DNA of 64,000 nt from Pseudomonadales bacterium (GCA_041395865.1 JAWKZQ010000015.1:1604-65603); one strand, 5' to 3'; positions 7,118 through 61,971 are shown, counted from the first letter of the stretch. Numbers and translations are program-made. The notes: generated from the sequence alone by a model not told the origin.

Positions 7118-7714
7118 TTAAAACTTGATTTCCGGGGCTTTACGGATTTCCGCACTATCGTCAAACTCCAGCAAACTGGCGTCTTTACCGTGCCCAAAGG
7201 TAGGCGCGAAAATCACCGGGGGGAAGCTCTGGCGATAGGTGTTGTACGTGGTTACGGCATCATTAAAGGCCTGCCGGGAAAAGGAAACCTTGTTCTCGGT
7301 GCTGGTCAGCTCTTCGCTAAGCTGCATCATATTCTGGTTGGCTTTCAGATCGGGGTAAGCCTCCATCACCACATTCAGACGCCCCAGGGCACCCGCCAGC
7401 AACCCCTCGGCACCCGCCAGCTCACCCAAGGCCGCAGCACTGCCCGGATCGGCGGCTGCCGCTTTCAGGCCCGCCATAGCCTGGTTGCGGGCGCCAATCA
7501 CGGCTTCCAGGGTCTCACGCTCATGGCTTAAGTAAGCCTTGGCGGTTTCCACCAGGTTAGGGATCAGGTCATATCGACGTTTGAGCTGCACTTCGATCTG
7601 GGCGAAGGCATTTTCATAGCGGTTCTTTAATGAAACCAGCTTGTTGTAAATGCCGACGGCGTAAAAAATGATCAGGGCCAAGACCACGAGAACCACAATC
7701 GTACTGATATCCAT
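7118..7714 (-). CDS. lemA: LemA family protein
   Basis: One N-terminal transmembrane helix plus a YNKLV...[24 protein letters not shown] LemA-type core. The ATG at 7714 has an AAAGGAAG Shine-Dalgarno (SD) sequence, so the 7780 start is probably an extension. Confidence 0.85.
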
Positions 7715-7840
7715 AGGGCTTCCTTTGCTGAACTGTTGGATCAAATGCTTTAAGTGTGGCCAATATCTGCGCTTTTTCAACGCGTTTCACAGACAAACTT
7801 CTATACTCAAATCACTGTCTGCCACATTCGCTAGCAATCC

Positions 7841-8191
7841 ATGTTCAAAAGCATCATTTACCTGACAGGCGCATTGGCCCTGCACTTTACCGACTTCGCT
7901 CACCCGAGTGCCTTTTTCAGCGTCTTCCTTCCTGTCATCGACGCCCTGTTCCTGATTTTCTTATGTTGGCAGCTCTTGTTTTTCATGACCCTGAACACCG
8001 GCTTTTCCGACGGCGACAGCTACTCTTTTTACGACCTGGTTGCCGATATTTATGACCTGCGTTACGACATACAGGAACAGGGTCCCCTGAAAGCTTTCCT
8101 TTCCCTGGCCCTGAACCTCTTCGACCTGGTTTGCTTTTTCATAGCCATGTTTTATTACTATGGCATGGTCATCGATTTAGTTCGCCTGTAA
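7841..8191 (+). CDS. Hypothetical small membrane protein
   Basis: 116-aa ORF with three or four hydrophobic segments, followed by a terminator. No family recognised. Confidence 0.4.
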   Translation: MFKSIIYLTGALALHFTDFAHPSAFFSVFLPVIDALFLIFLCWQLLFFMTLNTGFSDGDSYSFYDLVADIYDLRYDIQEQGPLKAFLSLALNLFDLVCFFIAMFYYYGMVIDLVRL

Positions 8192-8193
8192 AC

Positions 8194-8224
8194 AAAACGG
8201 GCCGCATTAGCGGCCCGTTTTGTT
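8194..8224. terminator. Bidirectional terminator between the small membrane ORF and serC
   Basis: AAAACGGGCCGC-ATTA-GCGGCCCGTTTT perfect hairpin with A/T runs on both sides. Confidence 0.75.
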
Positions 8225-8243
8225 AAGCTGGAGCGAACAGTGA

Positions 8244-9338
8244 TTAACCGTTTTTACGCTCGAACTCCTTCATAAAGTCAGCCAGCAGCTGAACGCCTTC
8301 AACCGGCATAGAGTTGTAGATAGAGGCGCGCAGGCCACCTACCACGGCATGCCCTTTCAAGGCATACATACCCTGCTCCAGCGCTTCAGCGATGAACTTG
8401 TCCGCCAACTCGTTATTGTTCGGCAGGTGGAAGGAAACGTTCATTGTAGAACGGAAATCCGGGTGCGCTACCGCCTGGTAGAAATCGGAGTTATCCAGCA
8501 CATCGTAGAGAATCTTCGCCTTATGCTCGTTGATTTCCTCAATAGCCGCCACGCCGCCCTTCTCTTTCAACCACTCCAGTACGCACATCAGCAGGTAAAT
8601 GGCGAAGGTATTGGTGGTGTTAGCCAACGAGTTTTCATCAGCGCTGACCTTGAAGTTGAGCATGGTTGGCGTGTGAGGCATGGCATGGCCCAACAGATCT
8701 TCACGAACAACCATCATGGCGACACCGGAGGGCCCCAGGTTCTTTTGCAGGCCCGCATACACCAGGCCAAACTGGTTGTAATCCATTTGACGGGACAACA
8801 GCTCGGAGGTCGCATCGACAACCAGCGGCACCTCACCGGTATCCGGGAAATCAATCCAGCGGGTTCCGTAGATGGTGTTGTTGGCAGTAATGTGCGCGTA
8901 GGCCGCATCCTGGTCAATGTCAGCCGGATCAAAGTCAGGAATACGGCTGTAACCACAGCTTTCACCATCGACAACGCGTTTGACCTCCCCGTAGCGCTCA
9001 GCTTCAAGGCGTGCCTGTTTGGCAAAGTTGCCCGTTTCAAAATAAAGCGCTTTGGGCTTGGCAACACGAGGCATCAGGTTCATTGGTATCGACGCAAACT
9101 GCATGCGCGCACCGCCGTGCATATAGAAGATTTCGAAGTTGTCGGGCACACCGGACAGCTCACGAAACAGGGAGTTACTGCGCTCGATAATTTCGATAAA
9201 TTCCTTGGAGCGGTGGCTCAGCTCCACCACGGAAACACCCAAACCACCATAATTCAGAAATTCACGCTGCGCACGTTCCATCACTGGCGTTGGCAGCATC
9301 GCCGGACCGGGGCCAAAATTAAAAACGCGATGACTCAT
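8244..9338 (-). CDS. serC: 3-phosphoserine/phosphohydroxythreonine aminotransferase
   Basis: N-terminus FNFGPGPAMLP, 364 aa, class V aminotransferase layout as in SerC. Confidence 0.92.
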   Translation of the reverse strand: MSHRVFNFGPGPAMLPTPVMERAQREFLNYGGLGVSVVELSHRSKEFIEIIERSNSLFRELSGVPDNFEIFYMHGGARMQFASIPMNLMPRVAKPKALYFETGNFAKQARLEAERYGEVKRVVDGESCGYSRIPDFDPADIDQDAAYAHITANNTIYGTRWIDFPDTGEVPLVVDATSELLSRQMDYNQFGLVYAGLQKNLGPSGVAMMVVREDLLGHAMPHTPTMLNFKVSADENSLANTTNTFAIYLLMCVLEWLKEKGGVAAIEEINEHKAKILYDVLDNSDFYQAVAHPDFRSTMNVSFHLPNNNELADKFIAEALEQGMYALKGHAVVGGLRASIYNSMPVEGVQLLADFMKEFERKNG

Positions 9339-9524
9339 AAGTTCTATCTTCCTGATGTATTAACCCGCACAAAGCCATTAATTTCGCGCAGGTTTTGGTT
9401 TTTTATCAAAAATTTTGCGGAGGATTTATACAGCAAATCGCCATTTTTTTCTAGCCATTAAAACAAGACACCCTGCAAAACACATGGAATAATCTCCAAA
9501 TCATTTCAAGTATGTAGACAGCTT

Positions 9525-10316
9525 ATGTCCGATTTAAAAACCACCCTTATCCAGCAACCCCTTTACTGGCTCGATGCAGATGCCAATCGCCAGCACTTTG
9601 AACAACTGATAACGCCCTTGAGGGGACAAACGGACCTTATCGTTTTGCCGGAAATGTTCAGCACCGGATTCAGTATGGAGCCCGCGCCCATTGCCGAACC
9701 GCTGAATGGTCCGACCCTGCAATGGCTGGGTGAACAAAGCGAAGCGGCCGACGCAGCGATCACCGGCAGTTTTACGGTTGAGGAAGACGGGTGTTTTTAT
9801 AACCGCATGGTGTTTATGCAGCCTGACGGCACGTACCAGTATTACGATAAGCGTCACTTATTCCGCATGGGGAATGAACACCATCGCTACCAAAGCGGCC
9901 GCCAACGACTCGTTGTCGACTACCGCGGCTGGCGCATATGCCCGATGGTTTGTTACGACCTGCGCTTTCCTGCCTGGTCCCGCAACGGTTACCACAACAG
10001 TGAGCATGACTTCGACCTGCTCATCTATGTGGCCAACTGGCCCCAACCGCGGCGTGAACACTGGTTGACGCTACTCAGAGCCCGCGCGATAGAAAACCTC
10101 TGTTACGTAGCCGGCGTTAACCGCCTGGGCACCGACGGAAACCAGCTTCACTACAGCGGCGACTCTGCACTTTTCGATGCATGGGGAGAGGAAATAATCA
10201 GCGCCCAGTCCCAGGCCGGCTGCTTTACCCAGACGCTCAGCCTGCAGGATTTACGTAAGACCCGTAAGCAATTCCCCGCTCACCTGGATGCCGACACCTT
10301 TGAGCTCAAGGTCTAG
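9525..10316 (+). CDS. yafV: Carbon-nitrogen hydrolase (omega-amidase YafV-like)
   Basis: Colinear with remembered E. coli YafV: LPEMFSTGF, YDKRHLFRM, CYDLRFPAWSR, YVANWP, ARAIEN. Confidence 0.85.
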   Translation: MSDLKTTLIQQPLYWLDADANRQHFEQLITPLRGQTDLIVLPEMFSTGFSMEPAPIAEPLNGPTLQWLGEQSEAADAAITGSFTVEEDGCFYNRMVFMQPDGTYQYYDKRHLFRMGNEHHRYQSGRQRLVVDYRGWRICPMVCYDLRFPAWSRNGYHNSEHDFDLLIYVANWPQPRREHWLTLLRARAIENLCYVAGVNRLGTDGNQLHYSGDSALFDAWGEEIISAQSQAGCFTQTLSLQDLRKTRKQFPAHLDADTFELKV

Positions 10317-45853: not shown

Positions 45854-46336
45854 TTACAAGCTGGCTTCCATTTTAATCAAGCCTTCTTGGGTTTTCTTGG
45901 CATGTTCTTCCTGCCGCGAAGCAACGGCACGAACCTCGCGCCTTTCAACCAAATCCTTCAGGCTGATATTACTTAAAAATGTGTGTATCTGCCGACTCAG
46001 GTCGTCCCACAAATGGTGGGTCAGGCAAACCTCGCCATGCTGGCAGTTGTTGTCGCCATTACAAAGCGTCGCATCGACCGACTCGTTCACTGCATCAACA
46101 ATTTCTGCAACACAGATATTGTCCAGCTCGCGAGCCAACTGGTAACCGCCGCCAGGCCCCCTGACACTGCTGACCAGCTGGCTACGACGCAACTTCGAAA
46201 ACAGCTGTTCCAGATAGGACAGAGAGATATCCTGGCGCAGGGAAATATCAGACAAACTGACCGGTCCATTTTCACTGTAAAGCGCGACATCAAGCATCGC
46301 TGTTACCGCATAACGGCCTTTAGTCGTCAAACGCAT
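45854..46336 (-). CDS. iscR: Fe-S cluster regulator IscR (Rrf2 family)
   Basis: [19 protein letters not shown]... with three Cys ligands (C92/C98/C104-like: [13 protein letters not shown]). Confidence 0.93.
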
Positions 46337-46378
46337 AACGCTCTCTCATCATTACTACTTAGACTCGGGCATTATGCT

Positions 46379-46403
46379 AAAACCCAGTAAATTAGTCAAG
46401 TAT
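46379..46403 (-). promoter_or_regulatory. IscR type-1 binding site in the iscR promoter
   Basis: The minus-strand sequence ATACTTGACTAATTTACTGGGTTTT matches ATASYYGACTRWWWYAGTCRRSTAT at about 20 of 25 positions. It lies 43-67 nt upstream of the iscR ATG. Confidence 0.6.
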
Positions 46404-46830
46404 ACTCAAGAAGCATCTCAGAAAACGCTTGTTGCTTTTCACGGTTCCGTGAAGCATCGCACATGAGTGCTCGGCCCAACGCCGTCGGCAGGCGAGATGA
46501 TAAAGGGAATGGATAAAACAAGAAAGCTCTCGTCCTTCCGTATAGCAACAAATAACGGTCATCCAGGCATTTAGCCCGGCATCCAGGTCTTCGACTCTTA
46601 TTTGCTGCCTTGAATACAGTTCTCGGATGAGAGTGTCTTGCCAGAAGGAACGCTCATCAAGGCAAGGAGGGCAGCGACATAACGCTAGCCGTAACGACGG
46701 GATGGTAAGTCGATTGGGGTCAGCCAGAACTCAACGCAATTCCAACCTGGCCATCGCTTGATAAAAAGCGGACAACAGCCGAACCAAGCCTGGTTTATTA
46801 CACTTGATTTCTGGCCAAGGAAAAACGTCT

Positions 46831-46860
46831 AAAAAAAACCGGTGCCAATAAGACACCGGT
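46831..46860 (-). terminator. Rho-independent terminator after the micro-ORFs
   Basis: ACCGGTG-9 nt-CACCGGT stem, followed on the minus strand by T8. Confidence 0.75.
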
Positions 46861-46874
46861 CCTCAGTTAAAGGG

Positions 46875-46976
46875 TTAAACCTGATTAGCAGCAGCCTTTT
46901 GTCTTTTTTGTTTTTTCTCAAGGCGTTTTTCTTTCAGTGTTTTCTTTGCACCTTTTTTCTCTTTTTCTTTTGTCAC
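46875..46976 (-). CDS. Micro-ORF 2: 33-aa Lys-rich peptide
   Basis: GTG at 46976 preceded by GAAGGGTG. Product (M)TKEKEKKGAKKTLKEKRLEKKQKRQKAAANQV. A strong terminator follows. Confidence 0.35.
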   Translation of the reverse strand: MTKEKEKKGAKKTLKEKRLEKKQKRQKAAANQV

Positions 46977-46988
46977 ATTGATCACCCT

Positions 46989-47069
46989 TCAGGATTGCAT
47001 GGACAAGCGCCGCAGTGACTTATCCCGTTTAGATTCAAAGTTATCTTTGCGGCCTGTTAAGTCATGCAT
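46989..47069 (-). CDS. Micro-ORF 1: 26-aa peptide
   Basis: Very strong SD: AAAGGAGGG, 7 nt, then ATG at 47069. Product MHDLTGRKDNFESKRDKSLRRLSMQS. Its TGA is in frame with micro-ORF 2. Confidence 0.4.
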   Translation of the reverse strand: MHDLTGRKDNFESKRDKSLRRLSMQS

Positions 47070-47102
47070 GTCGATACCCTCCTTTTACTTGATGGTTAAA
47101 GT

Positions 47103-47516
47103 CTAAGCATGAGCAATATCAACAACTTGAAGATCAACCCGGCATCCCAGAAACCGGAATTTAACCCGATCACCAACACCTCGGCCAAGCAGACGAATTC
47201 CTAACGGTGATAAACAGGACAACTCCCCTTCCTTGGCGACATCGCCTGTAGCAGAAACCAACGTAAAGCTCGCGGTTTCATCGGTGGTACGATCCAACAG
47301 CGTCACCCGGCTGTTTAATGCAACGACTTTTTCCTGCCGCACACTGCCGCTTTGTTGACGCTCAACAGCCGAGATCGCGTCGGCCAGATACACAGGCGAA
47401 CTGCTGAGATCTAATGGTGAATAAATCAAAAATCTGTTTACGCAACGGTTGGACACCAATTGCGCTCTACTTAATAATCCCCTGTTCAAGGCAACCCTCC
47501 AGCCGAACCATTTCAA
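47103..47516 (-). CDS. GreA/GreB C-terminal-domain protein (Rnk-like, regulator of nucleoside diphosphate kinase family)
   Basis: VVALNSRVTLLD...LSCLSPLGIRLLGRGVGDRV aligns with the remembered Rnk/GreA C-terminal fold. There is no ATG start (TTG at 47516 or 47429, GTG at 47456), so the N-terminus is uncertain. Confidence 0.6.
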   Translation of the reverse strand: MKWFGWRVALNRGLLSRAQLVSNRCVNRFLIYSPLDLSSSPVYLADAISAVERQQSGSVRQEKVVALNSRVTLLDRTTDETASFTLVSATGDVAKEGELSCLSPLGIRLLGRGVGDRVKFRFLGCRVDLQVVDIAHA

Positions 47517-47749
47517 TTCAATAGAAATAACAAACCGGAAACTGCAAGCGGGCGCACAAGCGCCCCTAACGGGGGAAGATGGGGGAAACTCTCCAAGAAA
47601 AGAACCGGGCTAACTTATCCACTGCAACTCCTTTGCCAACAATAAGCCTGGCCGGCTAGACAAGAAACTACAGGCTACCTGCTTTAAATATAAAGTCAAA
47701 GCCTAAGCGTGAAATAACCCGCTTAGGCTATGCAATAAATCCTAATTGC

Positions 47750-47924
47750 CGTTTCACAGGAAAGATTCCACAGGTTTGCCGGCGAGCCCTTCGCTTGAAG
47801 GGTCTCGCGGGTTTACCTGTAGCTATCCGTAACCGCAACCGGGTATTGCAGCAGTACTACTAGACCCAAGGGCTTTTTGGGGGTTTCCCTCACAGGCCTA
47901 GTAATACTGTCGCTGCAATTTTTT
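47750..47924 (+). ncRNA. Candidate small RNA (strand and ends uncertain)
   Basis: Lies in an ORF-free gap. Long hairpin at 47769-47820 (ACAGGT..GCGAG.CCTTC-GCTT-GAAGG.CTCGC..ACCTGT). A roughly 70-nt branched hairpin at 47846-47918 (TTGCAGCAGTACTACTAG / CTAGTAATACTGTCGCTGCAA) is followed by T6 at 47919-47924. Confidence 0.25.
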
Positions 47925-48046
47925 CGGCGAAGCACTCCTGCGCCTGTTAAAAAAAGGCGACAGGCATGAAAGCCTCACACATTCTTTCTCATTCATTTTC
48001 TCGCGGGCGAACAATCAGCCTCATACCGCCTGGAAATCTCACCCTT

Positions 48047-48733
48047 TCAGGAGGGATTTGCCCATTGGCGGATCAGGTTATGGTAGATGCCACTCAGACT
48101 AACCACTTCGCTATGGTCCGTTCCAAGCGTTGCCGACAAACGCTGCACCGAGCGATCCAGATCGAATAGCATCTCCCGCTGTTGGATATCGCGCACCATG
48201 CTTTGTATCCAAAAAAAAGAAGCCAGCCTCTCCCCCCGCTGAACCGCGGAAACATGGTGCAAGCTGGTGGCTGGGTAAAGCACCATATCGCCCGCCGGCA
48301 ACTTCACGGCCTGCGTACCGAATTGGGTTTCAATCGTCAGCTCTCCACCTTCGTACTCTTCAGGCCCCGAAAGAAACAGGGTCGCCGACAAGTCCGTTCG
48401 TAATGTCTGGCTGCTTGCCGGCATCTGCATTAACGCCGCATCAATATGCGCCCCGTAGGTTTCAGACTCGCTATAACGATTAAATTTCGGCGGATAAATC
48501 CTGTCCGGCAACGCCGCTGAGATAAATACCGGGTGCTGCGACAAAGCCCTAAGAATATGGTTACCGAGACTGATCGCCGGCTCCTTGGTATCGTCTAACT
48601 GCCGGTTCTTTTTGACATGGCGAGCAATGCTGCCTGCGCTACTTGCGCCATCCTGCCAGTCAGCCTTCTCTAAAAGCTCCCTGAACTGGCCGACTTCATC
48701 AGCTGTCAGGACCTGAGGAATTGTTATCAGCAT
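48047..48733 (-). CDS. Fe(II)/2-oxoglutarate-dependent PKHD-type hydroxylase (PiuC/YbiX-like)
   Basis: MLITIPQVLT..., YGAHIDAA (HxD), GGELTIE, LYPATSLHHV. 228 aa, like YbiX/PiuC. Confidence 0.8.
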   Translation of the reverse strand: MLITIPQVLTADEVGQFRELLEKADWQDGASSAGSIARHVKKNRQLDDTKEPAISLGNHILRALSQHPVFISAALPDRIYPPKFNRYSESETYGAHIDAALMQMPASSQTLRTDLSATLFLSGPEEYEGGELTIETQFGTQAVKLPAGDMVLYPATSLHHVSAVQRGERLASFFWIQSMVRDIQQREMLFDLDRSVQRLSATLGTDHSEVVSLSGIYHNLIRQWANPS

Positions 48734-48737
48734 CGGT

Positions 48738-49865
48738 TTACCACTCCACGTTGCTTACGAGTTGAGTTGCCCTGATATCAGCAATGCTTGCACAACCCGC
48801 CATTGCCATACAAAGCGCCAGTTCCTCTCTGAGCAGCTTGATCATATGCGCAACACCCAGCGGGCCCGCCACGCTCAAGGCATATACCTGCAAGCGGCCG
48901 ATTAACACCGCGTTCGCCCCGAGAGCAATCGCTTTAAAAACATCATCGCCGGAGCGTATGCCACTATCGAGCAATAGCGGGTAATCATCACCCACTGCCT
49001 GGCGAATAGCAGGCAGCACGGAAAGACTTGCCGGCGCTCCATCCAGCGTCCTGCCGCCATGATTGGAGACAATTATGCCAGCCACGCCCAGGGCTTTTAA
49101 TTCGCGGGCGTCGTCAGCATGCAACACCCCTTTCACCAGCACCGGCACAGGACTCTCATCAACCAGCCGCTTCAGTTTTTCCCGGCTGGGCGCATTTTGC
49201 ATATAACTAAGAAAGATATGACGCTGATCGGCTGTTTCAATAACCGGAGGCGTCACCGGACGCTGATCAACCAGGTTAGCGGGCACAAGCTGCTCCGGAA
49301 ACTGAAATCCCGCCCGGATCGCCCGAATACTGGGTGCCTGCAACGCCGCATCGACGGTCACCACAAGGGCACGATAACCGGCACCCACAGCTCGTTCGAC
49401 AAGCGCTGAGGTATCTTCGTCCCGTGACTGGAAATAAAGCTGAAACCAGCGCTCATCTCCTGCGGCCGAGGCAACCGCTTCCAACGCCGTCGATGACAGG
49501 GTACTTGAAACCAGGCAGGTATCCGTTGCCGCGGCTGCGCAGGCGGTCGCCATCTCCCCGTTCTGGTGTACTAACGCCTGATACGCAACAGGCGCCAGCA
49601 ATATCGGATGTTTCAACGAGCACCCCAGGATCTTCACCTGGGTATGGGCGTTGCTGACATCCTTAAAAATTCGTGGCGTTATCGCCAGGTTCGCAAAGGC
49701 TTTTCGATTGTTTTGCAGCGTCACCTCATGACCGCTACCCCCTGAAAGATAGGCGAAACAATCAGGCGAAATAAAGGCTTCGGCCGTCCGCTCATAGTCT
49801 CTGGCACAAATTATTTCAGAGGGAATAGAGCTCAGCGGCGCTGCAACGATATTTGGAATGCTCAT
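48738..49865 (-). CDS. FMN-dependent alpha-hydroxy-acid dehydrogenase/oxidase family protein
   Basis: TIM-barrel family motifs: LLAPVAYQ, WFQLY, VVTVD, VKGV, SNHGGR, DSGIRSG. Confidence 0.85.
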   Translation of the reverse strand: MSIPNIVAAPLSSIPSEIICARDYERTAEAFISPDCFAYLSGGSGHEVTLQNNRKAFANLAITPRIFKDVSNAHTQVKILGCSLKHPILLAPVAYQALVHQNGEMATACAAAATDTCLVSSTLSSTALEAVASAAGDERWFQLYFQSRDEDTSALVERAVGAGYRALVVTVDAALQAPSIRAIRAGFQFPEQLVPANLVDQRPVTPPVIETADQRHIFLSYMQNAPSREKLKRLVDESPVPVLVKGVLHADDARELKALGVAGIIVSNHGGRTLDGAPASLSVLPAIRQAVGDDYPLLLDSGIRSGDDVFKAIALGANAVLIGRLQVYALSVAGPLGVAHMIKLLREELALCMAMAGCASIADIRATQLVSNVEW

Positions 49866-49897
49866 TCGACTGACACACCCATTACGGTTAAACGTGA

Positions 49898-49922
49898 GCG
49901 GGGCAGCAGTTCACTGCCCCGC
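49898..49922 (-). other. Intra-operon GC-rich stem-loop
   Basis: GCGGGGCAG-7 nt-CTGCCCCGC in the 67-bp gap after the receptor gene. No U-tract follows on the minus strand. Confidence 0.45.
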
Positions 49923-49932
49923 CGACAGAGGC

Positions 49933-52293
49933 TTAGAAGCTGTACTGGACCGTCAACTGCGTATTGCGTCGATCGCCAATATAAGCAAAGGAACCCGAAC
50001 GATACGCCGCAAGGTAATAATCTTCATCGAAGATGTTTCCAATATTCAGCCGTACCAGCATCTCTGGGCTGACCTGATAGGAGGCAAACGCATCGACAAC
50101 TGTATAGGAAGGAATTCCCAGATCCTCATTGGCTGCCGAGTCAGGCTGTCCGACGAAACGAGCACTCTCATAGGTTGCCGTACCACCAAAAGCAAACTTC
50201 TCGGTCGCCTGATAACGCAAATGCAAAGAGGCAGACTTGTCGGCAAAGTTTGCCAGCGTTTTCCCTTCATTATCCTCGTTGATGGATTTCAGCACTTTCG
50301 CATTCATGAGCGTCAGTCCCGCCTGAAGGCTCAGCTTATCCGTCAAGTTGCCCACAAGCCCCAGCTCAACCCCTTCAACTTCGTTTTTACCCGTATTAAG
50401 GCTGCCCAGCGTGCTGTATGAATTACCTGTCGGCTGCTCCATGACATCATTTTTCGTAATACGGAACAGCGCTGCCGTTGCCAGCAATTTATCGCCATTC
50501 AGCTGCCACTTGGTGCCAAGCTCCCAGCTTTCGGTTTTTTCAGGCCCGCCCAGGTTTGGATCACTGCCGTCTACACAAATACCGCCATAACCACAGCTGG
50601 TGCCAACATCGGATTCACCACCGTTCAGGTTGGTTGCAGTCGAATAGCTCACATAGATGTTTGCACGCGGGGTAATTTTGAAGCTTGTCCCAACATGCCC
50701 ATTCCAGAAACCGTCTTTATCCTTAAAGTCGGTCAGCACTCGAGGCAGCGGTCCGCTCCGTCCATCGGCATCAAAATAGGCCGTTGTATCGTAGTCGTAA
50801 TAATCGTAACGAAGCCCGCCGAATACCGTCCACTTGTCATCCAGGTCAACCGTATCCATAAGATAGACCGAGGTGGTTTTAATACTCCAATCGGAGTCCC
50901 AGTCGCCTTTAGTCACGTTCCGTTGCAACAGGTCATTAATACCTGCAACTGCATTGCCGTTGGCATCAATAATACAGTAACTCGCGTTAGGACCTCCTCC
51001 CCCGGCTGCAAAACAGTTTGTCGCACCGGTGGCAGTATAGTCATAGACGCCGTTCAGGACGCTATGGTCACTGTACTCCAGCCCCATCACCAGCTCATGA
51101 TTCAGCCCGCCGATTTCCTGGTTAGTCAGCAGGTTAAGCTGGTTAGCGAAGTACTCCACCTCCTGCCAGCCCTGGTGAGTACTGAGTCCTGCCGAAGCAT
51201 AGCCATTGGTATCCGCACCTGCATCAGCCAGCGTCGGGTAAGCTGTACTACCGCGGGTGCCTGTCGCCAGATAGCCGTTATCGGTCGTTCCGTAACGGGT
51301 TAAATTCACAATACGGGACTGGGGGTTGAGTTCATATCCGATTCGCAAGGTGGCCGTATCAACCTGAGACTCCAGGAAGTCTTCATCCTGCACATAAACA
51401 GGAATATCTTTCACCGGTTTACCGCTTACCCTGTCGATATAGGTTCCCAGATCCGGTTTGTCCTCACCATCAAAGTGGTAATAATCGGCGGTTATTTCCA
51501 GCTTATCGCTCGCCCTGTGGGAGATAGAGAAAGCGGCACCCTTTCGGTCGCGCTCTGCGGGATCCCGATCAGGCACATCTTCCTGCGCATGCAACAAATT
51601 AACCCGCACGGCTGTGTCATAGTTGATCACCTGGTTCGTATCGAGTGTCAGCCGGTGATGATTATCGGTGCCAATACCGACGGACACTTTACTGAAATCG
51701 TATTCGGTGCTGGCCCGTTTGGTCGCCGCATTTACTGCACCACCCGTGGTTCCTCGGCCGGCGAAGCTCGAACTGGGTCCTTTGCTGATCTCAACCTGCT
51801 CAACGGCAAAGCTTTCCCGAATGGTCATACCCGGGTCCCTTAAGCCATCAACAAACATATCGCTGCGAGCTTCATGACCACGGATGATATAACGGTCCCC
51901 GAAAGCATTACCGTTCTCCCCCGTTCCCAGCGTAATGCCCGGCTGCCCATCCAGAATTTCACGCAAATCGCTGCGCCCGGTATCGGCAATTTCCGCCGCC
52001 GTCAGTACCGTGATGGTCTGCGGCGTCTCGGCCACCGAACGGGTACGGCGCGGATCCGACACCCGATCAGACAGGTAAGGCGCGCCCGGAACAGCATAGG
52101 GGTTGGTATCCGGGGTAACGGTTTCTTCGATCGTCAGTTTATCCAGAGACACACTGCTTTTCTCTTCGGCATTTGCCACACCGGCCACCAACGCACCAGA
52201 AATAGCCAACGCTAAGGTACTGGAACCAAAACCAACGGCCTTGTTTATTTGCTGAGGTCTAACCAGCGGATGTTTAAGTTGTTTCTTGGACAT
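49933..52293 (-). CDS. TonB-dependent outer-membrane receptor, Fiu/PiuA-like (catecholate-siderophore type)
   Basis: Signal peptide. The plug region LSDRVSDPRRTRSVAETPQTITVL resembles the remembered Fiu sequence ADR.S.PKFT..L.DTPQTITV. 786 aa, C-terminal ...LTVQYSF. Confidence 0.85.
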   Translation of the reverse strand: MSKKQLKHPLVRPQQINKAVGFGSSTLALAISGALVAGVANAEEKSSVSLDKLTIEETVTPDTNPYAVPGAPYLSDRVSDPRRTRSVAETPQTITVLTAAEIADTGRSDLREILDGQPGITLGTGENGNAFGDRYIIRGHEARSDMFVDGLRDPGMTIRESFAVEQVEISKGPSSSFAGRGTTGGAVNAATKRASTEYDFSKVSVGIGTDNHHRLTLDTNQVINYDTAVRVNLLHAQEDVPDRDPAERDRKGAAFSISHRASDKLEITADYYHFDGEDKPDLGTYIDRVSGKPVKDIPVYVQDEDFLESQVDTATLRIGYELNPQSRIVNLTRYGTTDNGYLATGTRGSTAYPTLADAGADTNGYASAGLSTHQGWQEVEYFANQLNLLTNQEIGGLNHELVMGLEYSDHSVLNGVYDYTATGATNCFAAGGGGPNASYCIIDANGNAVAGINDLLQRNVTKGDWDSDWSIKTTSVYLMDTVDLDDKWTVFGGLRYDYYDYDTTAYFDADGRSGPLPRVLTDFKDKDGFWNGHVGTSFKITPRANIYVSYSTATNLNGGESDVGTSCGYGGICVDGSDPNLGGPEKTESWELGTKWQLNGDKLLATAALFRITKNDVMEQPTGNSYSTLGSLNTGKNEVEGVELGLVGNLTDKLSLQAGLTLMNAKVLKSINEDNEGKTLANFADKSASLHLRYQATEKFAFGGTATYESARFVGQPDSAANEDLGIPSYTVVDAFASYQVSPEMLVRLNIGNIFDEDYYLAAYRSGSFAYIGDRRNTQLTVQYSF

Positions 52294-52301
52294 ACTGTCT
52301 C

Positions 52302-53074
<773 letters not shown>

Positions 53075-53078
<4 letters not shown>

Positions 53079-53485
53079 TGCTGACTCACGGTTGCGATGC
53101 TTAGCTGGCGAATACCCAACTCTCGCACCGCAATCAACACCGGATCCAGGGCCGTTGCCGGCAGGTCGCGGTGAACATGGCAAACTACAGCAATATCCGC
53201 CGAGAGCGGCACCATGCCCTTAAGTTGCTCAGACAAATTGGTATCAACGGCCTTACCATTGATGTAATAGACTCGATTGGCATCGATTTTTATTTCAAAC
53301 TGTCCGGCTTCCAGCTGGGTTTCACTGTAGGAAGCGGGCACCTGAAGGTGCTCATTTCTCGCCTCGATATGCCCGGCAATCATGAAAAATATCAACAGCA
53401 GGAAAACGATATTTATTGCCGGAATCATGCTGTCATCCAGCTTATTCTGCGATGCGGTGCGTAACTCGGTGTTCACGATTTTCAT
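53075..53485 (-). CDS. exbD: ExbD/TolR-family biopolymer transport protein
   Basis: 136 aa, N-terminal PAINIVFLLLIFFMI transmembrane helix, ExbD periplasmic domain. ATGA overlaps at both ends. Confidence 0.85.
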
Positions 53486-53880
53486 GGCGTCACCGATTGG
53501 CCGAGCTTCAGGTTCGCAACGCCAGCCTGATGCATCCGGTCGACAAGCTGAACCAGCGCCTGAATGCGAACATCCGCACCCGAGACCAGGATCACAGGCC
53601 CACCCTCTTTGGCAAGCTTGTCCAGCAACGCCGTAAAACGCGGCCCCTGTAGCGGATAAACCTCATGATTCACAACCGCCGTTTCGGCAGCGCTCAGGAC
53701 TATCCGTGTCGCCTCACCGTGCTGTTGCTGCTGACCGGGCGATGCAGCAGTAACTTCCATCTGCCTGGCTTTGTTGAACGTCGACGACAACATGAAGAAC
53801 AGCAGCAGAATAAACACCACGTCAATCAGCGGTGTAATACTGATCAGTCGCCGGCGCGGCCTGGCAAGCTCAAGCAGCAT
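53482..53880 (-). CDS. exbD: ExbD/TolR-family biopolymer transport protein (second copy)
   Basis: MLLELARPRRRLISITPLIDVVFILLLFFML. The ATG at 53880 overlaps the exbB stop within ATGCTGCTTGA. The 53973 start in the track is an extension. Confidence 0.8.
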   Translation of the reverse strand: MLLELARPRRRLISITPLIDVVFILLLFFMLSSTFNKARQMEVTAASPGQQQQHGEATRIVLSAAETAVVNHEVYPLQGPRFTALLDKLAKEGGPVILVSGADVRIQALVQLVDRMHQAGVANLKLGQSVTP

Positions 53881-54736
53881 GTTGCGCCACTCCGCGCACC
53901 TCAGGAACGGCCGTAATGAAAGCCTCCTGACTGGTAAAAACCTGAGTAATCGCATCATTAATGGCGCTCGCAACCCTTTCGGCTTTCCGATCCAGCCAGC
54001 TATGCACCGCAGAAACAGGAATCGCTACAGCCAGCCCTGCCGCAGTCGTCAATAACGCCTGCCAGATGCCGCCGGATAAAGTGGATGGATCCACCTGTGC
54101 ACCTGCCGCTTCCATCTGCTGAAAGGCAACGATCATGCCCAGCACCGTCCCCATTAAGCCTAACAAGGGACTTAAATTCGCAATCACCTCGAGTGGGCGC
54201 AGCAGGGAACGCTGCTGCCCAATAAACACATCAGCCTGACGCCTCAATTCTTCCAGCAACAACCCGTAGTCTTGTTTCTGCAGGACACCCTGCATCGCAT
54301 ACAGCACGATTTTGCCAACCGGGTGCCTGTGATCAACGGCCTGAACCGCCGCCTCCGTATTCCGGTTACGCCAATGCGCCAAACCTCCTTTCACGGCATC
54401 AAGCTTTTCCGGGCGCTGTACGGCAATCTGCCAAAGCTTCAACAGAACGATGGTCAAGGCAAAAATGGAGAGGAAGATCAGAATCCAAACAACGGGGCCA
54501 CCAACACCCGCCAGGTCTATAAACTGGTTCAAGGTTCCTTCCACCTGCCCGGCACCTGATCCGTCAAACGCCGTCGTCAAGCTGTCCGGCGCAGCCACGG
54601 GGGTTTGTGCCGGATCAACGAGCTCTGGAGCCGCAGAGAGATCGCCGCCTAAATCTCCACCTGTTATTTCAGCTTTATTGGCGGCGCTATCGAGCATCTC
54701 GCCGCTCGCCGCTTCCACTTGATGACTACCGTTCAT
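53870..54736 (-). CDS. exbB: MotA/TolQ/ExbB proton-channel protein with long N-terminal extension
   Basis: Three transmembrane helices and the ...LGLMGTVLGMI... motif. About 90 aa of acidic, low-complexity N-terminus. Confidence 0.85.
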   Translation of the reverse strand: MNGSHQVEAASGEMLDSAANKAEITGGDLGGDLSAAPELVDPAQTPVAAPDSLTTAFDGSGAGQVEGTLNQFIDLAGVGGPVVWILIFLSIFALTIVLLKLWQIAVQRPEKLDAVKGGLAHWRNRNTEAAVQAVDHRHPVGKIVLYAMQGVLQKQDYGLLLEELRRQADVFIGQQRSLLRPLEVIANLSPLLGLMGTVLGMIVAFQQMEAAGAQVDPSTLSGGIWQALLTTAAGLAVAIPVSAVHSWLDRKAERVASAINDAITQVFTSQEAFITAVPEVRGVAQHAA

Positions 54737-54767
54737 ATTCAGTACCGGGTATATTGCAAAACTAAAA

Positions 54768-54786
54768 GATAATGATTATCGTTAGC
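54768..54786. promoter_or_regulatory. Fur box
   Basis: GATAATGATTATCGTTAGC matches GATAATGATAATCATTATC at 16 of 19 positions. It lies 32 bp upstream of the exbB ATG. Confidence 0.75.
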
Positions 54787-55082
54787 TTTATTGTTTAAAG
54801 CTTTGCACACTTTAACGTCGGTACTGTTAAGAAAGCGTTAACACAAACGCCGGTTGTCGTATTTAGCGCCTAAAAAAAAGCTAACCCATAGATTTGCCTC
54901 AGCTTTTGCAAAGCTGCTGGCAGGTTCGGAGTTAAAAACTGTCGGCGATACGAGAAAACCGGGAAAACCTGTGCCTGTGCGTTCACCGCCCGGGCAGCAG
55001 GAAAAACGGGCGGATTAGCGCACTGCAAACAAAGAAAATGCTCCTTAAAAACTACAGCCCTGCAGTGGGAAGAGGTTCTCGC

Positions 55083-55748
55083 ATGTTGAACATACTGTTG
55101 GTAGAGGATGATCGCGATCTTGCCTCGTCAATCATCGACCATTTGGAACTCGAGCAGATCATCTGCGATTACGCGACAAACGGCCTGGAAGCTGCCGTTT
55201 TAGTTAAGAAAAACAGTTACCACGCGATCATCCTGGATATCAATATGCAGGAAATGGATGGATTAACGCTGTGCAAAAGAATCCGGGATCTGGGAAACGA
55301 TACGCCGATACTGATGCTGACGGCCAGAGATACGCTGGCTAACAAGCTTGAAGGGTTTAGCGCAGGCTCGGATGATTACATGGTCAAGCCATTTGATATC
55401 GAGGAATTGCTTGCCAGGTTATATGTGCTCTCCAAACGCCGCAGCGGCCAGGTTTCTGTATTAGAAAGCGGCCCACTGAGCCTCAACCTCAGCAACCTCT
55501 CCGGCAAGCTCAATGATGAGCCCATCAAACTGACGCCCACCACCTTCAAGCTGTTGGAAACCCTGATGAGGGCCAGCCCCAATCCGGTTTCTCAAAGCGA
55601 CCTAATCCAAAGCGTCTGGGGGGACGAAATACCGGACAGCAATAAACTCCGCGTCCATATTTATAACCTTCGAAAGGTGCTCAGTGCAGGCAATGCCGAG
55701 CACCTGCTGAAAACCGTCCCTGGTTATGGTTTCTGCATAACCGGTTAA
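55083..55748 (+). CDS. OmpR/PhoB-family response regulator
   Basis: MLNILLVEDDRDL receiver domain plus a winged-helix C-terminus (LTPTTFKLLETLM...TVPGYGF). The ATG at 55083 has an AGAGG SD. Confidence 0.88.
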   Translation: MLNILLVEDDRDLASSIIDHLELEQIICDYATNGLEAAVLVKKNSYHAIILDINMQEMDGLTLCKRIRDLGNDTPILMLTARDTLANKLEGFSAGSDDYMVKPFDIEELLARLYVLSKRRSGQVSVLESGPLSLNLSNLSGKLNDEPIKLTPTTFKLLETLMRASPNPVSQSDLIQSVWGDEIPDSNKLRVHIYNLRKVLSAGNAEHLLKTVPGYGFCITG

Positions 55749-55767
55749 CCCGCTAAGCCCCCGAAAC

Positions 55768-57015
55768 ATGACAAAAAAAAGCAGCCTGAAAAAGCACATT
55801 ACGCTACGGATAATCTTCCTGGGTTTATGCATGTCATTTCTGCTTTCCTACCAAAGCGGACAATTTTTCCTCAAGGGCTTCGACCTGATGAGAAAAGAGC
55901 AAATGATCCTGGCCGCCAGCTATCCGCTTGCAGGTAAAAAAACAACGCAGGTACTTGGGTATCATGTAGCGGCCGACTGGGACCATGTACCGAAAAAGAT
56001 AAAGCAGGTGTTTCCCGCCCCGCCGCAAAAGCCCGGACAATACTTTAAGCATTTTCAGAACTGGTGGTATTTCGCTCCTCCGGAAACGGGCTACTTCCTG
56101 ATGCTGGTGCCTACGGAATCTGGCGCATCCCGATATGTCTCACTGGTGCGTGAGAATATCGGGAAATCAATACGCCCCGCTAAAGGATTTTATGTCGACC
56201 CGATGGTACAGATCGCACTCTGGGGGCTAGGCGCCCTCTTGAGTTTTATACTGCTGATTTCCTGGTCGTTCAGGGGCCTGAGCCAACCCGCTCAGGCGCT
56301 TTACAACTGGGCCAGCCAGCTCAGGTTGGAATCTATTGATAAAAAAGCCCCGGACTTCCAATACCGCGAGCTTAATGAGCTCTCAGCCATTATTCACAAC
56401 AGTCTGGAGAGCATGGGGGAAGCGATGAAAAGGGAAAATGAATTCCTTGGGTATGCCAGTCACGAACTGCGAACCCCCATAGCTACCCTGAGAAGCGATG
56501 CGGCCCTGCTGGATAAAATCAGCCCGGTCCCGTCACCCAAGGAACGCGAAGTAAGGGACCGCATGATCAGGTCCAGCCTATCAATGAAAGGCATTACAGA
56601 AACCCTTCTCTGGCTAAACCGTAACGACCAGGAACCCTTGCAATACAGCAAAGTGAATCTTGAACAACTTTTGAAACAGGAAATACAAACACTGAGATAC
56701 CTGCTTGCAGGCAAGGACGTCGCCCTGCAGCTGGAGACAACGCCCTGTACAAGAAACCTGCCTCAAGCCGCCTATCAAATGCTCGTGAGCAACCTAATCA
56801 GAAACGCTTTCCAGCACACTCAACGGGGGACTATCCATATCCGCCAAAGGGGTTCAGAGTTACAGATCGTTAACCGTCTTCCAGCAGGAAAAAGCCGTGC
56901 CAGCACGGGCTTTGGGTTGGGCTTAAAGCTGATCCGCAAAATTGCCGAGCGCTTTCAGTGGGCGCTGACCGAAGAGAAGTCTGACACACACAATAGCGTC
57001 ATCATTAAAGTCTGA
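55768..57015 (+). CDS. Sensor histidine kinase (partner of the OmpR-type regulator)
   Basis: Two transmembrane helices flank a periplasmic domain of about 130 aa. H-box ASHELRTPI, then a HATPase domain. Confidence 0.85.
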   Translation: MTKKSSLKKHITLRIIFLGLCMSFLLSYQSGQFFLKGFDLMRKEQMILAASYPLAGKKTTQVLGYHVAADWDHVPKKIKQVFPAPPQKPGQYFKHFQNWWYFAPPETGYFLMLVPTESGASRYVSLVRENIGKSIRPAKGFYVDPMVQIALWGLGALLSFILLISWSFRGLSQPAQALYNWASQLRLESIDKKAPDFQYRELNELSAIIHNSLESMGEAMKRENEFLGYASHELRTPIATLRSDAALLDKISPVPSPKEREVRDRMIRSSLSMKGITETLLWLNRNDQEPLQYSKVNLEQLLKQEIQTLRYLLAGKDVALQLETTPCTRNLPQAAYQMLVSNLIRNAFQHTQRGTIHIRQRGSELQIVNRLPAGKSRASTGFGLGLKLIRKIAERFQWALTEEKSDTHNSVIIKV

Positions 57016-57144
57016 ATGAAGCGCTTTAGGTCGTACAGATTCGCCTGAGCATTCAGTTTGGTTACTTCACGCCAACCCTTTCAATAAATTGACTGCGTAG
57101 AAGAAACAAGCGTAGCCGACCCGCAAAGAGTCGACGGCCGGGCG

Positions 57145-57930
57145 CTAGCCTGGCTTTTGCTCACTCTCGTCATCCAAACCTTCGCACTTAAGCTCAGGCA
57201 AGTCCGTCGCCTTAAAGTTTGCATCCATCGCTTTCAGGGCTTTGCACATGCTTTCCAGGCGTTCGTCAACGGCATGCATATGGTCGAGAATGCCGTGTAT
57301 CGACTTGGCAACCGGGTCCGGCGAATCCTGAGTCACGCCATAGGCATCGAAGCCCATGCGATCGGCCATCGCCTGCCGCCGCTGCCTGAGCGCTTCGTCA
57401 GTTTTCTCTTCTTTCTGTTGCTTGGTAATAATCCGACCGGGAATGCCCACCACGGTAGCACCCTCCGGAACCGCCTTGGTCACCACGGCGTTAGAACCAA
57501 CCCGGGCGTTTCGCCCCACCAGAATCGGCCCGAGCACCTTGGCTCCCGCTCCGACAACCACGCCGTCCTCAAGCGTAGGGTGGCGCTTGCCTTTGTTCCA
57601 GGTGGTGCCGCCAAGCGTCACCCCGTGATACAGGGTCACATCGTCGCCAACTTCGGCCGTTTCGCCAATCACCACGCCCATGCCGTGATCGATAAAGAAT
57701 CGGCGGCCGATTTTGGCGCCCGGATGAATCTCAATGCCGGTCACCCACCGGGAAAACGTCGATAAGGCGCGCGCCAGCCATTTCCAGTTATTACGCCATA
57801 ACCAATGACTGGTACGATGGAACTGAATGGCATAAAACCCTGGGTAAGTGGTACAAACTTCAAACACATTGCGTGCGGCAGGGTCACGGTCAAAAACGCA
57901 GTTAATATCTTCTTTTATTCTTTCAAACAT
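57145..57930 (-). CDS. cysE: Serine O-acetyltransferase
   Basis: N-terminal SATase helix domain ([30 protein letters not shown]) plus hexapeptide repeats. Confidence 0.92.
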
Positions 57931-58067: not shown

Positions 58068-58304
58068 ATGTCACAAATCGCACAACATCGTGCCGGAGAA
58101 ACCGGCCACTATCCATTCCGCAGCGAACGTCTTTATTTTTCCGGTGATGCCTGGTATTTCCTGATCCGCGGCGGCGGCTCCAAAGGCCCCTACTCAACCG
58201 CCCAGGACGCAAAAGACGCCCTTAACGGCTATGTCGAGACCCTAAAACAACTGCATGAAGTCTTCCACAGACCCACTGAAGACGACCATCATCATCACTC
58301 ATAA
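58068..58304 (+). CDS. Small conserved hypothetical protein (DUF6316-like) with His-rich tail
   Basis: FRSERLYFSGDAWYFLIRGG.SKGPYSTAQDAKDAL resembles a small family remembered as DUF6316. It ends in DDHHHHS. Confidence 0.5.
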   Translation: MSQIAQHRAGETGHYPFRSERLYFSGDAWYFLIRGGGSKGPYSTAQDAKDALNGYVETLKQLHEVFHRPTEDDHHHHS

Positions 58305-60112: not shown

Positions 60113-61971
60113 CTAAATATACAGCTTCTTGATGTTGCGGCGGCCATAAATAAGGTTGACCAGCGCTCGCGTGCCAACAATTGCCGTAAACATCGAAGTG
60201 ACAATGCCGATGGACAGGGTAACCGCGAATCCCTTAACCGGGCCGGTTCCCACCGCAAACAGGATCACCGCAACCAGCAGGGTGGTGATATTGGCATCAA
60301 AAATTGTCGAGAAGGCTCGCTCGTAACCGGCGTGGATGGCCGACTGGATCGGCACTTTATTCCGTAGCTCTTCCTTAATGCGGGCAAAAATCAACACGTT
60401 GGCATCCACCGCCATACCCACTGTCAGCACAATACCGGCAATACCCGGCAATGTCAGGGTTGCCGACAACATGGACATGACCGCCACCAGCAACACCAGG
60501 TTAAGCGCCAACGCAAGGTTGGCGATGAGGCCAAAGATCTTGTAGTAAACGAGCATAAACGCCAGCACCAGCAACAGACCGATCTGTACCGAGGTAACGC
60601 CCAAATCGATATTTTCCTGGCCAAGGCTCGGACCAATGGTCCGCTCTTCAACGATATAAACGGGGGCTGCCAGCGAGCCGGCACGCAGCAGTAATGCAAG
60701 CTCTGACGCTTCCTGCGGACTGTCCAGACCGGTTATACGGAACCGGTTGCCCAGCGCGGTTTGGATATTGGCCAGGCTGATAATGCTTTTTCCACGTACT
60801 TGGCGGTTTCAGGCACCAGCTCACCGTCCACTTCCTTGTAGCGTGTGCGGGTTTTATGCTCGATAAAGAGCACCGCCATGGAGCGGCCAACATTATCGCG
60901 GGTGGCACGGTTCATTAATTTGCCGCCCTTGCTATCCAGCGTAATATTGACCTCTGGGCGACCATTTTCATCGTAACCCATGGCAGCATTGGATACGCTG
61001 TTACCCGTGATAATTAATTCCTTTTCCAGACGTGCCGTACGCCCACCCCTTGCCGGGTCGCGGAATTCAAAAACTTCGGTACGGCTGGAAAGCTCGTCGG
61101 GCTGGGCTTCCAGGCGGAATTCGAGGTTGGCGGTTTTACCAATGATGTTTTTACAAAACGCCGCGTCCAGACAACCCGCGAGCTCGACCACAATACGGTC
61201 GCGCCCCTGACGCTGAACCAACGGCTCGGCAACGCCCAGTTCGTTGACGCGGTTGCGCAAGGTCGTCAGGTTTTGCTTGATGGCGTAATCCTCAATTTCA
61301 CGCTGGGTCGCTTCGTCCAGCGTCAAATTAAGTAAGTAGCTGCCCTCTGATTCGGTGTCGGTCACCAGGAATTCGCTATAGTCGCCACGCAGCAGGCTTT
61401 GCGCCTTGTCCCTGTAATCTTCGCGGGTAAACTTGATCTGCAGGCTACCATCTTCAAGATGGTCAATGCGGCGGTAGCGCAGCTTTTCCTCGCGCAGGCG
61501 GTTGCGAATCTCGCTGAGGTAGACATCCATGCGCTGCTCAACGGCCTTGGCCATATCCACTTCCAGCAGGAAGTGCACGCCACCGCGCAGGTCAAGCCCC
61601 AGGTTCATTGGCGCAGCACCCAGGCTGACCAGCCAATCCGGTGTTGATGGCGCCAGGTTCAGGGCAACCAGGTAATTATCACCCAGCACACGGCTGGCAA
61701 TGGCTTTACCCTTAAGCTGCTCTTCACTGTTATTAAAGCGAATCAGGCCGTTGCGACCATCAACTTCTGCCGTCTTGTAATTGACGCCTTCCCTCTCCAG
61801 CGCATTCCTGACCTGGCCCATGGCGGCCTCATCAATTGGCACCGAAGCATTGGCCCCGGATAATTGAAGCGCCGGATCATCCGGATACAGGTTTGGCGCT
61901 GCATAAATGCCTCCCAGCACCAGCACTGCCAGTACCAGCAGGTATTTCCATAGTGGGTATCGGTTCAGCAT
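60113..61971 (-). pseudogene. secD: Protein translocase subunit SecD, interrupted by a 1-nt deletion in a T5/A5 run at 60787-60791 (probably a sequencing artefact)
   Basis: The 412-aa ORF ends in out-of-frame residues. Restoring one A gives ...[60 protein letters not shown]..., joining the 163-aa ORF for 619 aa in total. Confidence 0.85.

Follow-up and report, generated by a model that had tools for sequence, protein, structure and literature searches.

A probable insertion of a pre-assembled iron-uptake module between cysE and iscR in an uncultured marine member of the Pseudomonadales

The DNA analysed in this study is a stretch of 64,000 nucleotides (hereafter the window) from a metagenome-assembled genome (MAG) of a Pseudomonadales bacterium (GCA_041395865.1, JAWKZQ010000015.1:1604-65603). 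Within it, a block of roughly 10.5 kb separates cysE from iscR, the first gene of the Fe-S assembly cluster iscRSUA-hscBA-fdx-iscX. Here we describe the genes of this block and the evidence that it represents a derived insertion, restricted to one uncultured marine species, whose cargo is a pre-existing and self-contained iron-uptake module of known kind; we assign this reading a probability of about 0.8.

Genes and features of the cysE-iscR interval

The block is flanked by cysE on its high-coordinate side and by iscR on its low-coordinate side (Table 1). The interval contains 10 genes supported by Pfam, two micro-ORFs (open reading frames, ORFs) and about 950 bp of ORF-free DNA, and every ORF of at least 60 aa inside the block could be assigned to a listed family. 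All listed genes are placed on the minus strand, with the exception of those of the response regulator and the histidine kinase. An earlier note, prepared from the sequence alone, had reported this gene content, and its coordinates proved accurate on re-analysis (cysE stop at 57145, iscR promoter at 46371-46404). The same is true of the approximately 900 bp of structured, ORF-free DNA that it described: the two stretches concerned (46405-46831 and 47517-48046) fold better than shuffled sequences (z -2.6 and -4.6, respectively).

The core of the block is an uptake operon beginning with exbB. The start of the first exbD was taken as the ATG at 53880, which gives an 11-nt overlap with exbB, and tonB, with its ATG at 53078, shares 4 nt with the end of exbD; both overlaps are also found in a related module on contigs L097-L100, which probably represent a sister lineage. 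The best full-length PDB match of the receptor is PiuA (5FOK, E 7e-94, residues 72-786), followed by PiuD (5NEC, E 2e-81), PiuA of A. baumannii (5FP1, E 8e-78) and Fiu (6BPM, E 7e-64), whereas the next-best receptors in the PDB reach only E 1e-31. Having a Plug, a barrel and full-length similarity to PiuA, PiuD and Fiu, the protein was classed as PiuA/Fiu-type. It passes the NCBIfam cutoff of the TonB-siderophore subfamily (240.2 vs 223.5 bits) and falls below that of the Fiu equivalog NF007349 (317.7 bits vs a cutoff of 686); judged by its sequence, it is a relative of Fiu and not an equivalog. The dioxygenase passes the cutoff of the equivalog NF003975 (337.5 vs 180 bits) and matches the solved PiuC structure 9QN1 (E 1e-67, residues 2-225). 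The receptor and dioxygenase genes are located on the same strand, 1.2 kb apart, with a single FMN_dh gene between them, and this order is kept in L097-L101. The closest PDB entries to the product of the intervening gene are L-lactate oxidase (7F22, E 3.7e-101) and other alpha-hydroxyacid oxidases. An FMN oxidase gene in this position was observed in three lineages (window 48738-49865; L097 12438-13562; L101 12425-13543).

The exbB gene and the two-component genes share a divergent control region of 301 bp, in which a predicted, near-consensus Fur box is located 32 bp upstream of the exbB start. No second site of this kind occurs in the 64 kb, and 100 shuffles gave an expectation of 0; the box is present at the same position in L097-L100 and in a weaker form in L101. 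The control region aligns with that of the L097-L100 module at 69% identity over 91 nt. Neither the response regulator nor the kinase reached any NCBIfam equivalog cutoff.

In Pseudomonas aeruginosa, OmpR-type two-component systems are encoded beside catecholate receptors (PfeRS-PfeA and PirRS-PirA). By analogy with these, the following scheme may be proposed for the window. Under iron limitation Fur would leave the exbB promoter and the operon would be expressed, supplying its own energiser (ExbB-ExbD-ExbD-TonB) for a PiuA/Fiu-type outer-membrane receptor predicted to take up catecholate-type iron chelates. Two cytoplasmic enzymes, PiuC and the FMN-dependent alpha-hydroxyacid oxidase, presumably act on the ligand once it has been imported. 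The divergent OmpR-type system would probably make induction dependent on the substrate as well, in the manner of PfeRS and PirRS.

Table 1. Features of the cysE-iscR interval and its flanking genes (positions are those of the window)
Feature	Position	Strand	Evidence or remarks
iscR	45854-46336	-	Pfam Rrf2, E 2.4e-39; 86-93% identical to family relatives
iscR core promoter with IscR-box-like block	46371-46404	-	TATACTTGACTAATTT..GGTTTTAGCATAAT
ORF-free spacer	46405-46831		longest ORF 58 aa at most
Intrinsic terminator	46831-46864	-	fold -21.5 kcal/mol, z -3.8
Micro-ORF (putative), 36 aa, lysine-rich	46875-46985	-	MINVTKEKEKKGAKKTLKEKRLEKKQKRQKAAANQV
Micro-ORF (putative), 26 aa	46989-47069	-	AAGGAGG in front
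Rnk-like gene	47103-47516	-	Pfam GreA_GreB, E 6.4e-14, residues 61-135
Conserved non-coding hairpin, 3' end of uptake operon	47842-47924	-	
PiuC/YbiX-type Fe(II)/2-oxoglutarate dioxygenase	48047-48733	-	NCBIfam NF003975; Pfam PKHD_C, 2OG-FeII_Oxy_3
FMN-dependent alpha-hydroxyacid oxidase/dehydrogenase	48738-49865	-	Pfam FMN_dh, E 9e-115
PiuA/Fiu-type TonB-dependent catecholate siderophore receptor (predicted)	49933-52293	-	Pfam Plug, TonB_dep_Rec_b-barrel
tonB	52302-53078	-	Pfam TonB_C, E 5e-18
exbD, second copy	53075-53485	-	Pfam ExbD, E 5e-17
exbD, first copy	53482-53880	-	Pfam ExbD, E 2.9e-17
exbB, first gene of uptake operon	53870-54736	-	Pfam MotA_ExbB, E 4e-26
Fur box (predicted)	54768-54786		2 mismatches to GATAATGATAATCATTATC
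OmpR-family response regulator	55038-55748	+	Pfam Response_reg, Trans_reg_C
Sensor histidine kinase, convergent with cysE	55768-57015	+	Pfam HisKA; HATPase_c weak
Spacer between convergent histidine kinase and cysE stops, 129 bp	57016-57144		
cysE	57145-57930	-	Pfam Hexapep, SATase_N; 80-90% identical to family relatives

Empty sites in relatives and the two junctions

An IscR-based scan with one genome per species yielded at least 80 loci, 76 of which, among the matches listed, had enough upstream sequence. In this listed set cysE lies within 600 bp of iscR at 54 loci and trmJ at a further 17 (71 of 76 abutting), and no homologue of any block gene was found within 10 kb of iscR at any of the 76. 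The genomes of the scan are distant ones, the best IscR identity among the matches listed being 75%. Closer relatives were found by a protein search with IscR, and their contigs were then fetched. Empty cysE-iscR junctions were present in five family-level lineages with 86-93% identical IscR proteins and a spacing of 143-436 bp: L092 (IscR 93% identical, 188 bp), L094/L095 (87%, 436 bp), L096 (86%, 167 bp), L102/L103 (88%, 152 bp) and L106/L107 (86%, 143 bp). All contigs that carry the block at this junction are 98.5-99.7% identical to the window, i.e. they come from the same species.

The adjacency of cysE (or trmJ) and iscR is thus the ancestral state, and close relatives hold empty sites. 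Taken together with the homology breakpoints described below, these sites show that the arrangement of the window is derived. The earlier note had read the block as an accessory insertion lacking the canonical hallmarks of mobility; the empty sites and the confinement of the block to the species of the window support this view. By the test that the note had set, its reading would fail if the same genes lay between cysE and iscR in all relatives, close and distant; this is contradicted by the five lineages and by 71 of the 76 listed loci. Its suggestion that the insertion may be old was not borne out: the block is missing from an L092-type relative whose IscR is 93% identical, which makes the event a phylogenetically young one, although the bulk composition of the block matches the host. 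The lineage differs from the Pseudomonas-type gene order that it cited in that suhB is not found at this position and that a small DUF6316 gene, absent from the cited layout, separates trmJ from cysE. This gene (58068-58304, plus strand, opposite to its neighbours) has an equivalent that is kept family-wide (L092-L096, L102-L104, L106-L109). A literature search on cysE-iscR-trmJ synteny gave nothing useful.

Nucleotide homology with the empty-site relatives (blastn) ends at 46404-46411 on the iscR side and begins again within the terminal part of cysE, at 57166-57182, in close agreement with the bounds of 46420-57144 proposed earlier. The iscR core promoter, which includes a sigma-70-like match (TTGACT-17-CATAAT, 10/12), is invariant in all 8 family sequences and unique within the window. 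The spacers of the empty sites are mutually unalignable, and there is no conservation upstream of the core promoter. Because the sequence beyond this promoter is not conserved even among empty sites, the left breakpoint can be bracketed only between 46405 and about 46831, and the spacer at 46405-46831 may include the ancestral cysE-iscR spacer. CysE is full length, with an acidic C-terminal tail that differs in every relative; the protein is intact up to this naturally varying tail, and the right breakpoint therefore falls within the 129 bp between the histidine kinase and cysE stops. Neither of the terminal spacers (46405-46831 and 57016-57144) matches any fetched locus. The insertion has left both cysE and the core promoter of iscR undamaged.

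No integrase, recombinase or transposase is encoded by the ORFs of at least 60 aa in 46337-57144, the longest ORF in the non-coding parts has 58 aa at most, there is no tRNA or tmRNA in the 64 kb, and no Rfam family was detected at the gathering score. A dedicated search for boundary repeats returned at most 8 nt in direct and 9 nt in inverted orientation, equal to the expectation from shuffled sequences. The search for short repeats at the boundaries proposed in the earlier note was thus run with nothing above chance, and its statement that integrase, transposase, tRNA and flanking repeat are lacking was confirmed by these ORF, tRNA, Rfam and repeat searches. A 17-nt inverted pair (82%) at 46583/57126 was rejected as a boundary repeat, being at chance level.

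The bulk composition of the block resembles that of its host. The GC content of the two-component genes, which had appeared AT-richer by eye, is 0.514-0.515, the mean of the window being 0.531 (sd 0.015), and their z-scores for GC at third codon positions (GC3) are -0.1 and -0.9; the difference is not significant, and the impression was not upheld. More generally, of the compositional profiles recommended for the boundaries, GC and tetranucleotide content match the host (r 0.91 between block and window core; GC3 normal), and only the fit of codon usage is slightly low.

Origin of the block and alternative readings

Contigs L097-L100 carry the same block, composed of the kinase, the regulator and the divergent exbB-exbD-exbD-tonB-receptor-FMN enzyme-PiuC genes, together with a gene for a periplasmic binding protein. 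Their module is not located at the cysE-iscR junction; it is placed between a gene for a DAO-type oxidoreductase and a thrS gene. An eight-gene operon without the two-component genes is found at yet another locus in Amphritea atlantica. Since both modules have the same gene order, a divergent control region containing a Fur box, and a hairpin in common, the segment 47842-57015 (approximately 9.2 kb) was a unit before its arrival, and the cargo is a pre-assembled conserved module rather than a miscellany of genes. The binding-protein gene is absent from the window, and a search of the non-coding DNA for its remnants, as well as for those of the DAO, thrS, chemoreceptor (MCP) and polB genes, gave nothing better than E 0.03.

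The receptors of the window and of L097-L100 are mutual closest relatives (85% identity, vs about 77% to others): homologues of the window protein reach 84-85% identity in L097-L100 and no more than about 77% thereafter, and the protein database contains none at 86-99%. For the remaining proteins of the module, the identities to L097-L100 are 77% (PiuC), 71% (response regulator), 69% (exbB), 65% (FMN_dh), 61% and 49% (the two exbD copies), 56% (tonB) and 51% (histidine kinase). The flanks of the module in L097-L100 resemble the empty-site contigs in composition (GC 0.480 vs 0.479, tetranucleotide r 0.90) and come from the same two samples.

The thrS gene beside the module in L097-L100 was considered as a phylogenetic or donor-site marker and rejected, having one relative at 88% identity and then none above 75%. 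It is accompanied by folE2, hisI, PTPS and amidohydrolase genes and not by infC-rpmI-rplT, and we take it, from its appearance, to be an accessory paralogue. The complete run consists of thrS, GCHY-1 (folE2-type), PRA-CH (hisI), MerC, Maf, PTPS and amidohydrolase genes (L097 15723-22358; L099 9590-16225; L100 15723-22358), possibly representing zinc-regulated accessory paralogues of metal-dependent enzymes.

An assembly chimera might have been formed through the (GAGCCA)n/(GGCTCT)n repeat of tonB (52765-52859, about 14 units), which encodes the run of Glu-Pro that is characteristic of TonB proteins. It is in this region, approximately 6.47 kb upstream of iscR, that L081, L082, L083 and L086, four independent short-read contigs, terminate, and the window lacks one nucleotide of secF that is present in another contig. 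However, the sequences flanking the repeat are the halves of a single tonB gene, the gene order is that of L097-L101, and independent contigs cover the junctions on both sides. The left junction is present in 8 of them (L081-L083, L085, L086, L088-L090), and the right junction, cysE|histidine kinase, in L108-L110 at 99.4-99.7% identity to the window, the kinase gene being likewise called in L109. A chimera is therefore excluded for practical purposes. Alternatively, the arrangement may be ancestral for the lineage, with the block lost in relatives. There is nothing direct in favour of this view, apart from the other genes that L093/L104 and L044 have at the junction. The block would have had to be cleanly deleted five times or more, each time independently, within the family and to be lost in essentially all outgroups; moreover, the occupied relatives carry unrelated cargo, and the nearest relative of the module is located at a different locus. 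We consider an ancestral arrangement highly improbable. Given that the block was inserted, its site might still have been selected, with Fur-controlled read-through into iscRSUA or some other coupling of iron import to Fe-S assembly. The uptake operon, the Rnk-like gene and iscRSUA are co-directional, the hairpin behind PiuC has no U-run, and both systems handle iron. Against this stand a strong canonical terminator (z -3.8, U8) 430 bp upstream of the intact and invariant iscR promoter, the presence of the same module at unrelated loci in other genomes, and the unrelated genes found at the cysE-iscR junction in other lineages. An adaptive placement is quite unlikely.

In the mechanism that we propose, the block would have arrived by recombination without a self-mobile element, at a spot, between the end of a gene and the next promoter, that would tolerate an insertion. 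Several observations weigh against the reading given above. Contigs L097-L100 are a probable sister lineage, linked to the empty-site lineage by co-occurrence and composition only, and not physically. The identities within the module are uneven (49-85%), against 77-92% for core genes compared with the empty-site lineage, and Amphritea is nearly as close as the presumed sister for PiuC (75%) and FMN_dh (64%); therefore vertical orthology followed by relocation is not secure. A low codon-usage fit was found in 7 of the 9 module genes, which is equally compatible with an old transfer and with weakly expressed accessory genes. Finally, the Fur regulation, the two-component regulation and the substrate are predictions. 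The uneven and partly very low identities, the near-equidistance to Amphritea and the codon fit all speak for horizontal transfer from another lineage with the same module family, perhaps on an element that never had mobility genes or no longer has them. So does the occurrence of the module family at different loci across several genera, as well as the combination of an empty site in the closest relative (L092) with the lack of an 86-99% identical receptor in the protein database. Opposed to transfer are the composition of the module, whose GC content follows the host in each of three carrier genomes (module/host 0.525/0.531-0.539 in the window, 0.468/0.480 and 0.548/0.540 in the others), so that the window module matches its own host, and not the other carriers, in GC as well as in tetranucleotide content. 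The receptor, the hairpin and the control region are, moreover, closest to L097-L100, the composition of which resembles that of the family of the window, and no integrase, tRNA or repeats were found. Taking both sides into account, transfer has a lesser, though appreciable, chance of being correct. Our preference, a tentative one with about an even chance of being correct, is that a module already resident in the lineage was relocated.

Other lineages carry unrelated genes at this junction. In one sub-lineage, L093 and L104, a chemoreceptor (MCP) of 678 aa is encoded there, the two copies being 96% identical, and L093 additionally carries a gene for a PEP-CTERM protein (occupied stretches L093 5943-9500 and L104 1900-3936). 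In L044 ('Salinisphaera sp. G21_0') the same junction contains an ORF of 683 aa without a Pfam domain (7568-9619). The cysE-iscR spacer seems to tolerate insertions repeatedly.

Relation to known systems and minor features

The receptor/dioxygenase pairs Fiu-YbiX, PiuA-PiuC and CciT-CciO are Fur-regulated, co-conserved and broadly syntenic across Proteobacteria, and the role of their dioxygenase is still open (PMC12004947). The module of the window resembles these pairs of E. coli (Fiu-YbiX), P. aeruginosa and A. baumannii (PiuA-PiuC) and Caulobacter (CciT-CciO) in that receptor and dioxygenase are encoded in one operon with a predicted Fur box at its promoter. It differs from them by the gene for an FMN-dependent alpha-hydroxyacid oxidase inserted between the two, and by the addition of its own exbB-exbD-exbD-tonB genes and of a divergent two-component system. 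As a conserved form of the PiuA/PiuC (CciT/CciO) pair, the module could be of use in establishing the role of the dioxygenase. The position of the OmpR-family regulator and its kinase, divergently transcribed beside an operon for a catecholate-type receptor, is reminiscent of PfeRS and PirRS, although the receptor appears to be of the PiuA/Fiu type and not of the FepA/PfeA type of PfeRS-PfeA.

The block can also be compared with genomic islets. It shares with them an empty site, accessory cargo, the lack of integrase, tRNA and repeats, and the fact that other lineages have different cargo in this position. In contrast to islets, its composition is unremarkable relative to the host, and the nearest relative of its cargo is chromosomal, in a probable sister lineage, and not borne by a plasmid or phage. 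The event is an ordinary genome rearrangement involving a small accessory block without mobility genes and with cargo of a known kind, and current understanding is not overturned by it. Its value is mainly descriptive: a well-bounded, pre-assembled operon block, lacking a mobile-element signature, between conserved core units, for which the empty sites, a different cargo in the same position and the occurrence of the block at another locus are all documented. It illustrates that a very widely conserved adjacency (cysE/trmJ-iscR) can be split undamaged if the break falls between the end of a gene and the next promoter.

As a terminator separates the block from iscR, transcriptional coupling is unlikely and the position of the block is probably incidental; the shared iron theme of the neighbours is, in the simplest reading, a coincidence. 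A bolder proposal is that, in this family, the cysE-iscR spacer acts as a recurrent capture site for sensing and uptake genes (the iron module, the chemoreceptor of L093/L104, the 683-aa gene of L044) that leaves no mobile-element signature, that in the species of the window read-through or local effects of the co-directional, Fur-controlled operon create a partial link between iron uptake and Fe-S assembly, and that the FMN oxidase is a clue to the substrate chemistry of PiuC/CciO. We regard this combination as speculative and unlikely.

The terminator (GGACCGGUGUC-UUAUU-GGCACCGGU, followed by U8) closes the unit formed by the Rnk-like gene and the micro-ORFs, and it was the only place where Rfam searches at gathering and E-value thresholds produced matches, all of them sub-threshold. 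The Rnk-like ORF contains the C-terminal domain of GreA/GreB only; it reached no NCBIfam cutoff and, at 32 bits against a cutoff of 109 for the Rnk equivalog NF004396, is not classed as Rnk. Its codon usage is strongly atypical (a further point for transfer), its first 41 codons look non-coding (z -9.5), and translation probably begins at the GTG at 47393, giving a protein of 96 aa. The ORF is intact in all strains, which differ by substitutions only. A scan of metagenome contigs for relatives of this gene gave a single match with 31% identity and none that was close, and the stretch of approximately 1.4 kb that leads from the hairpin to the iscR promoter matches no fetched locus. Since no close relative of the Rnk-like segment was found, the insert may be composite. 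The micro-ORFs (46875-47069) have no Pfam match; they contain no SNPs (single-nucleotide polymorphisms) in 9 same-species contigs, while the adjacent non-coding DNA is polymorphic, which is weak evidence of constraint.

The hairpin (AAUUGCAGC..GCUGCAAU, with CCCCAAAAAGC in the loop) spans about 75-88 nt directly after the last gene of the uptake operon. It is common to the L097-L100 module, with 75% identity over 88 nt (E 5.5e-11; L099 9232-9319, L100 15365-15452), has a fold of -56.9 kcal/mol and is followed by no U-run; no Rfam family corresponds to it. The changes in its stem (A-U to G-U and U-G to U-A) keep the pairing only on the operon-sense strand. The hairpin could be a stabiliser of the 3' untranslated region or a small RNA and, together with the FMN oxidase of this PiuA/PiuC-type module, it is the most reusable by-product of the analysis.

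Two observations were made in the sec genes of the window. secF (59728) is split by one missing base (GGTTGGGG changed to GGT-GGGG) in comparison with L108, a 99.4% identical contig in which SecF is intact (308 aa), and secD (approximately 60605-60732) is split into ORFs of 412 and 163 aa, its relatives having 619 aa. Both breaks are likely to reflect errors of the assembly or strain variation in the MAG. Finally, in the empty-site relative L092 two tandem copies of the IscR box and -35 region are found upstream of iscR (3368-3436), both of which (3401-3436 and 3368-3396) match window positions 46376-46404; this suggests two IscR sites in L092, as compared with one recognisable copy in the window.

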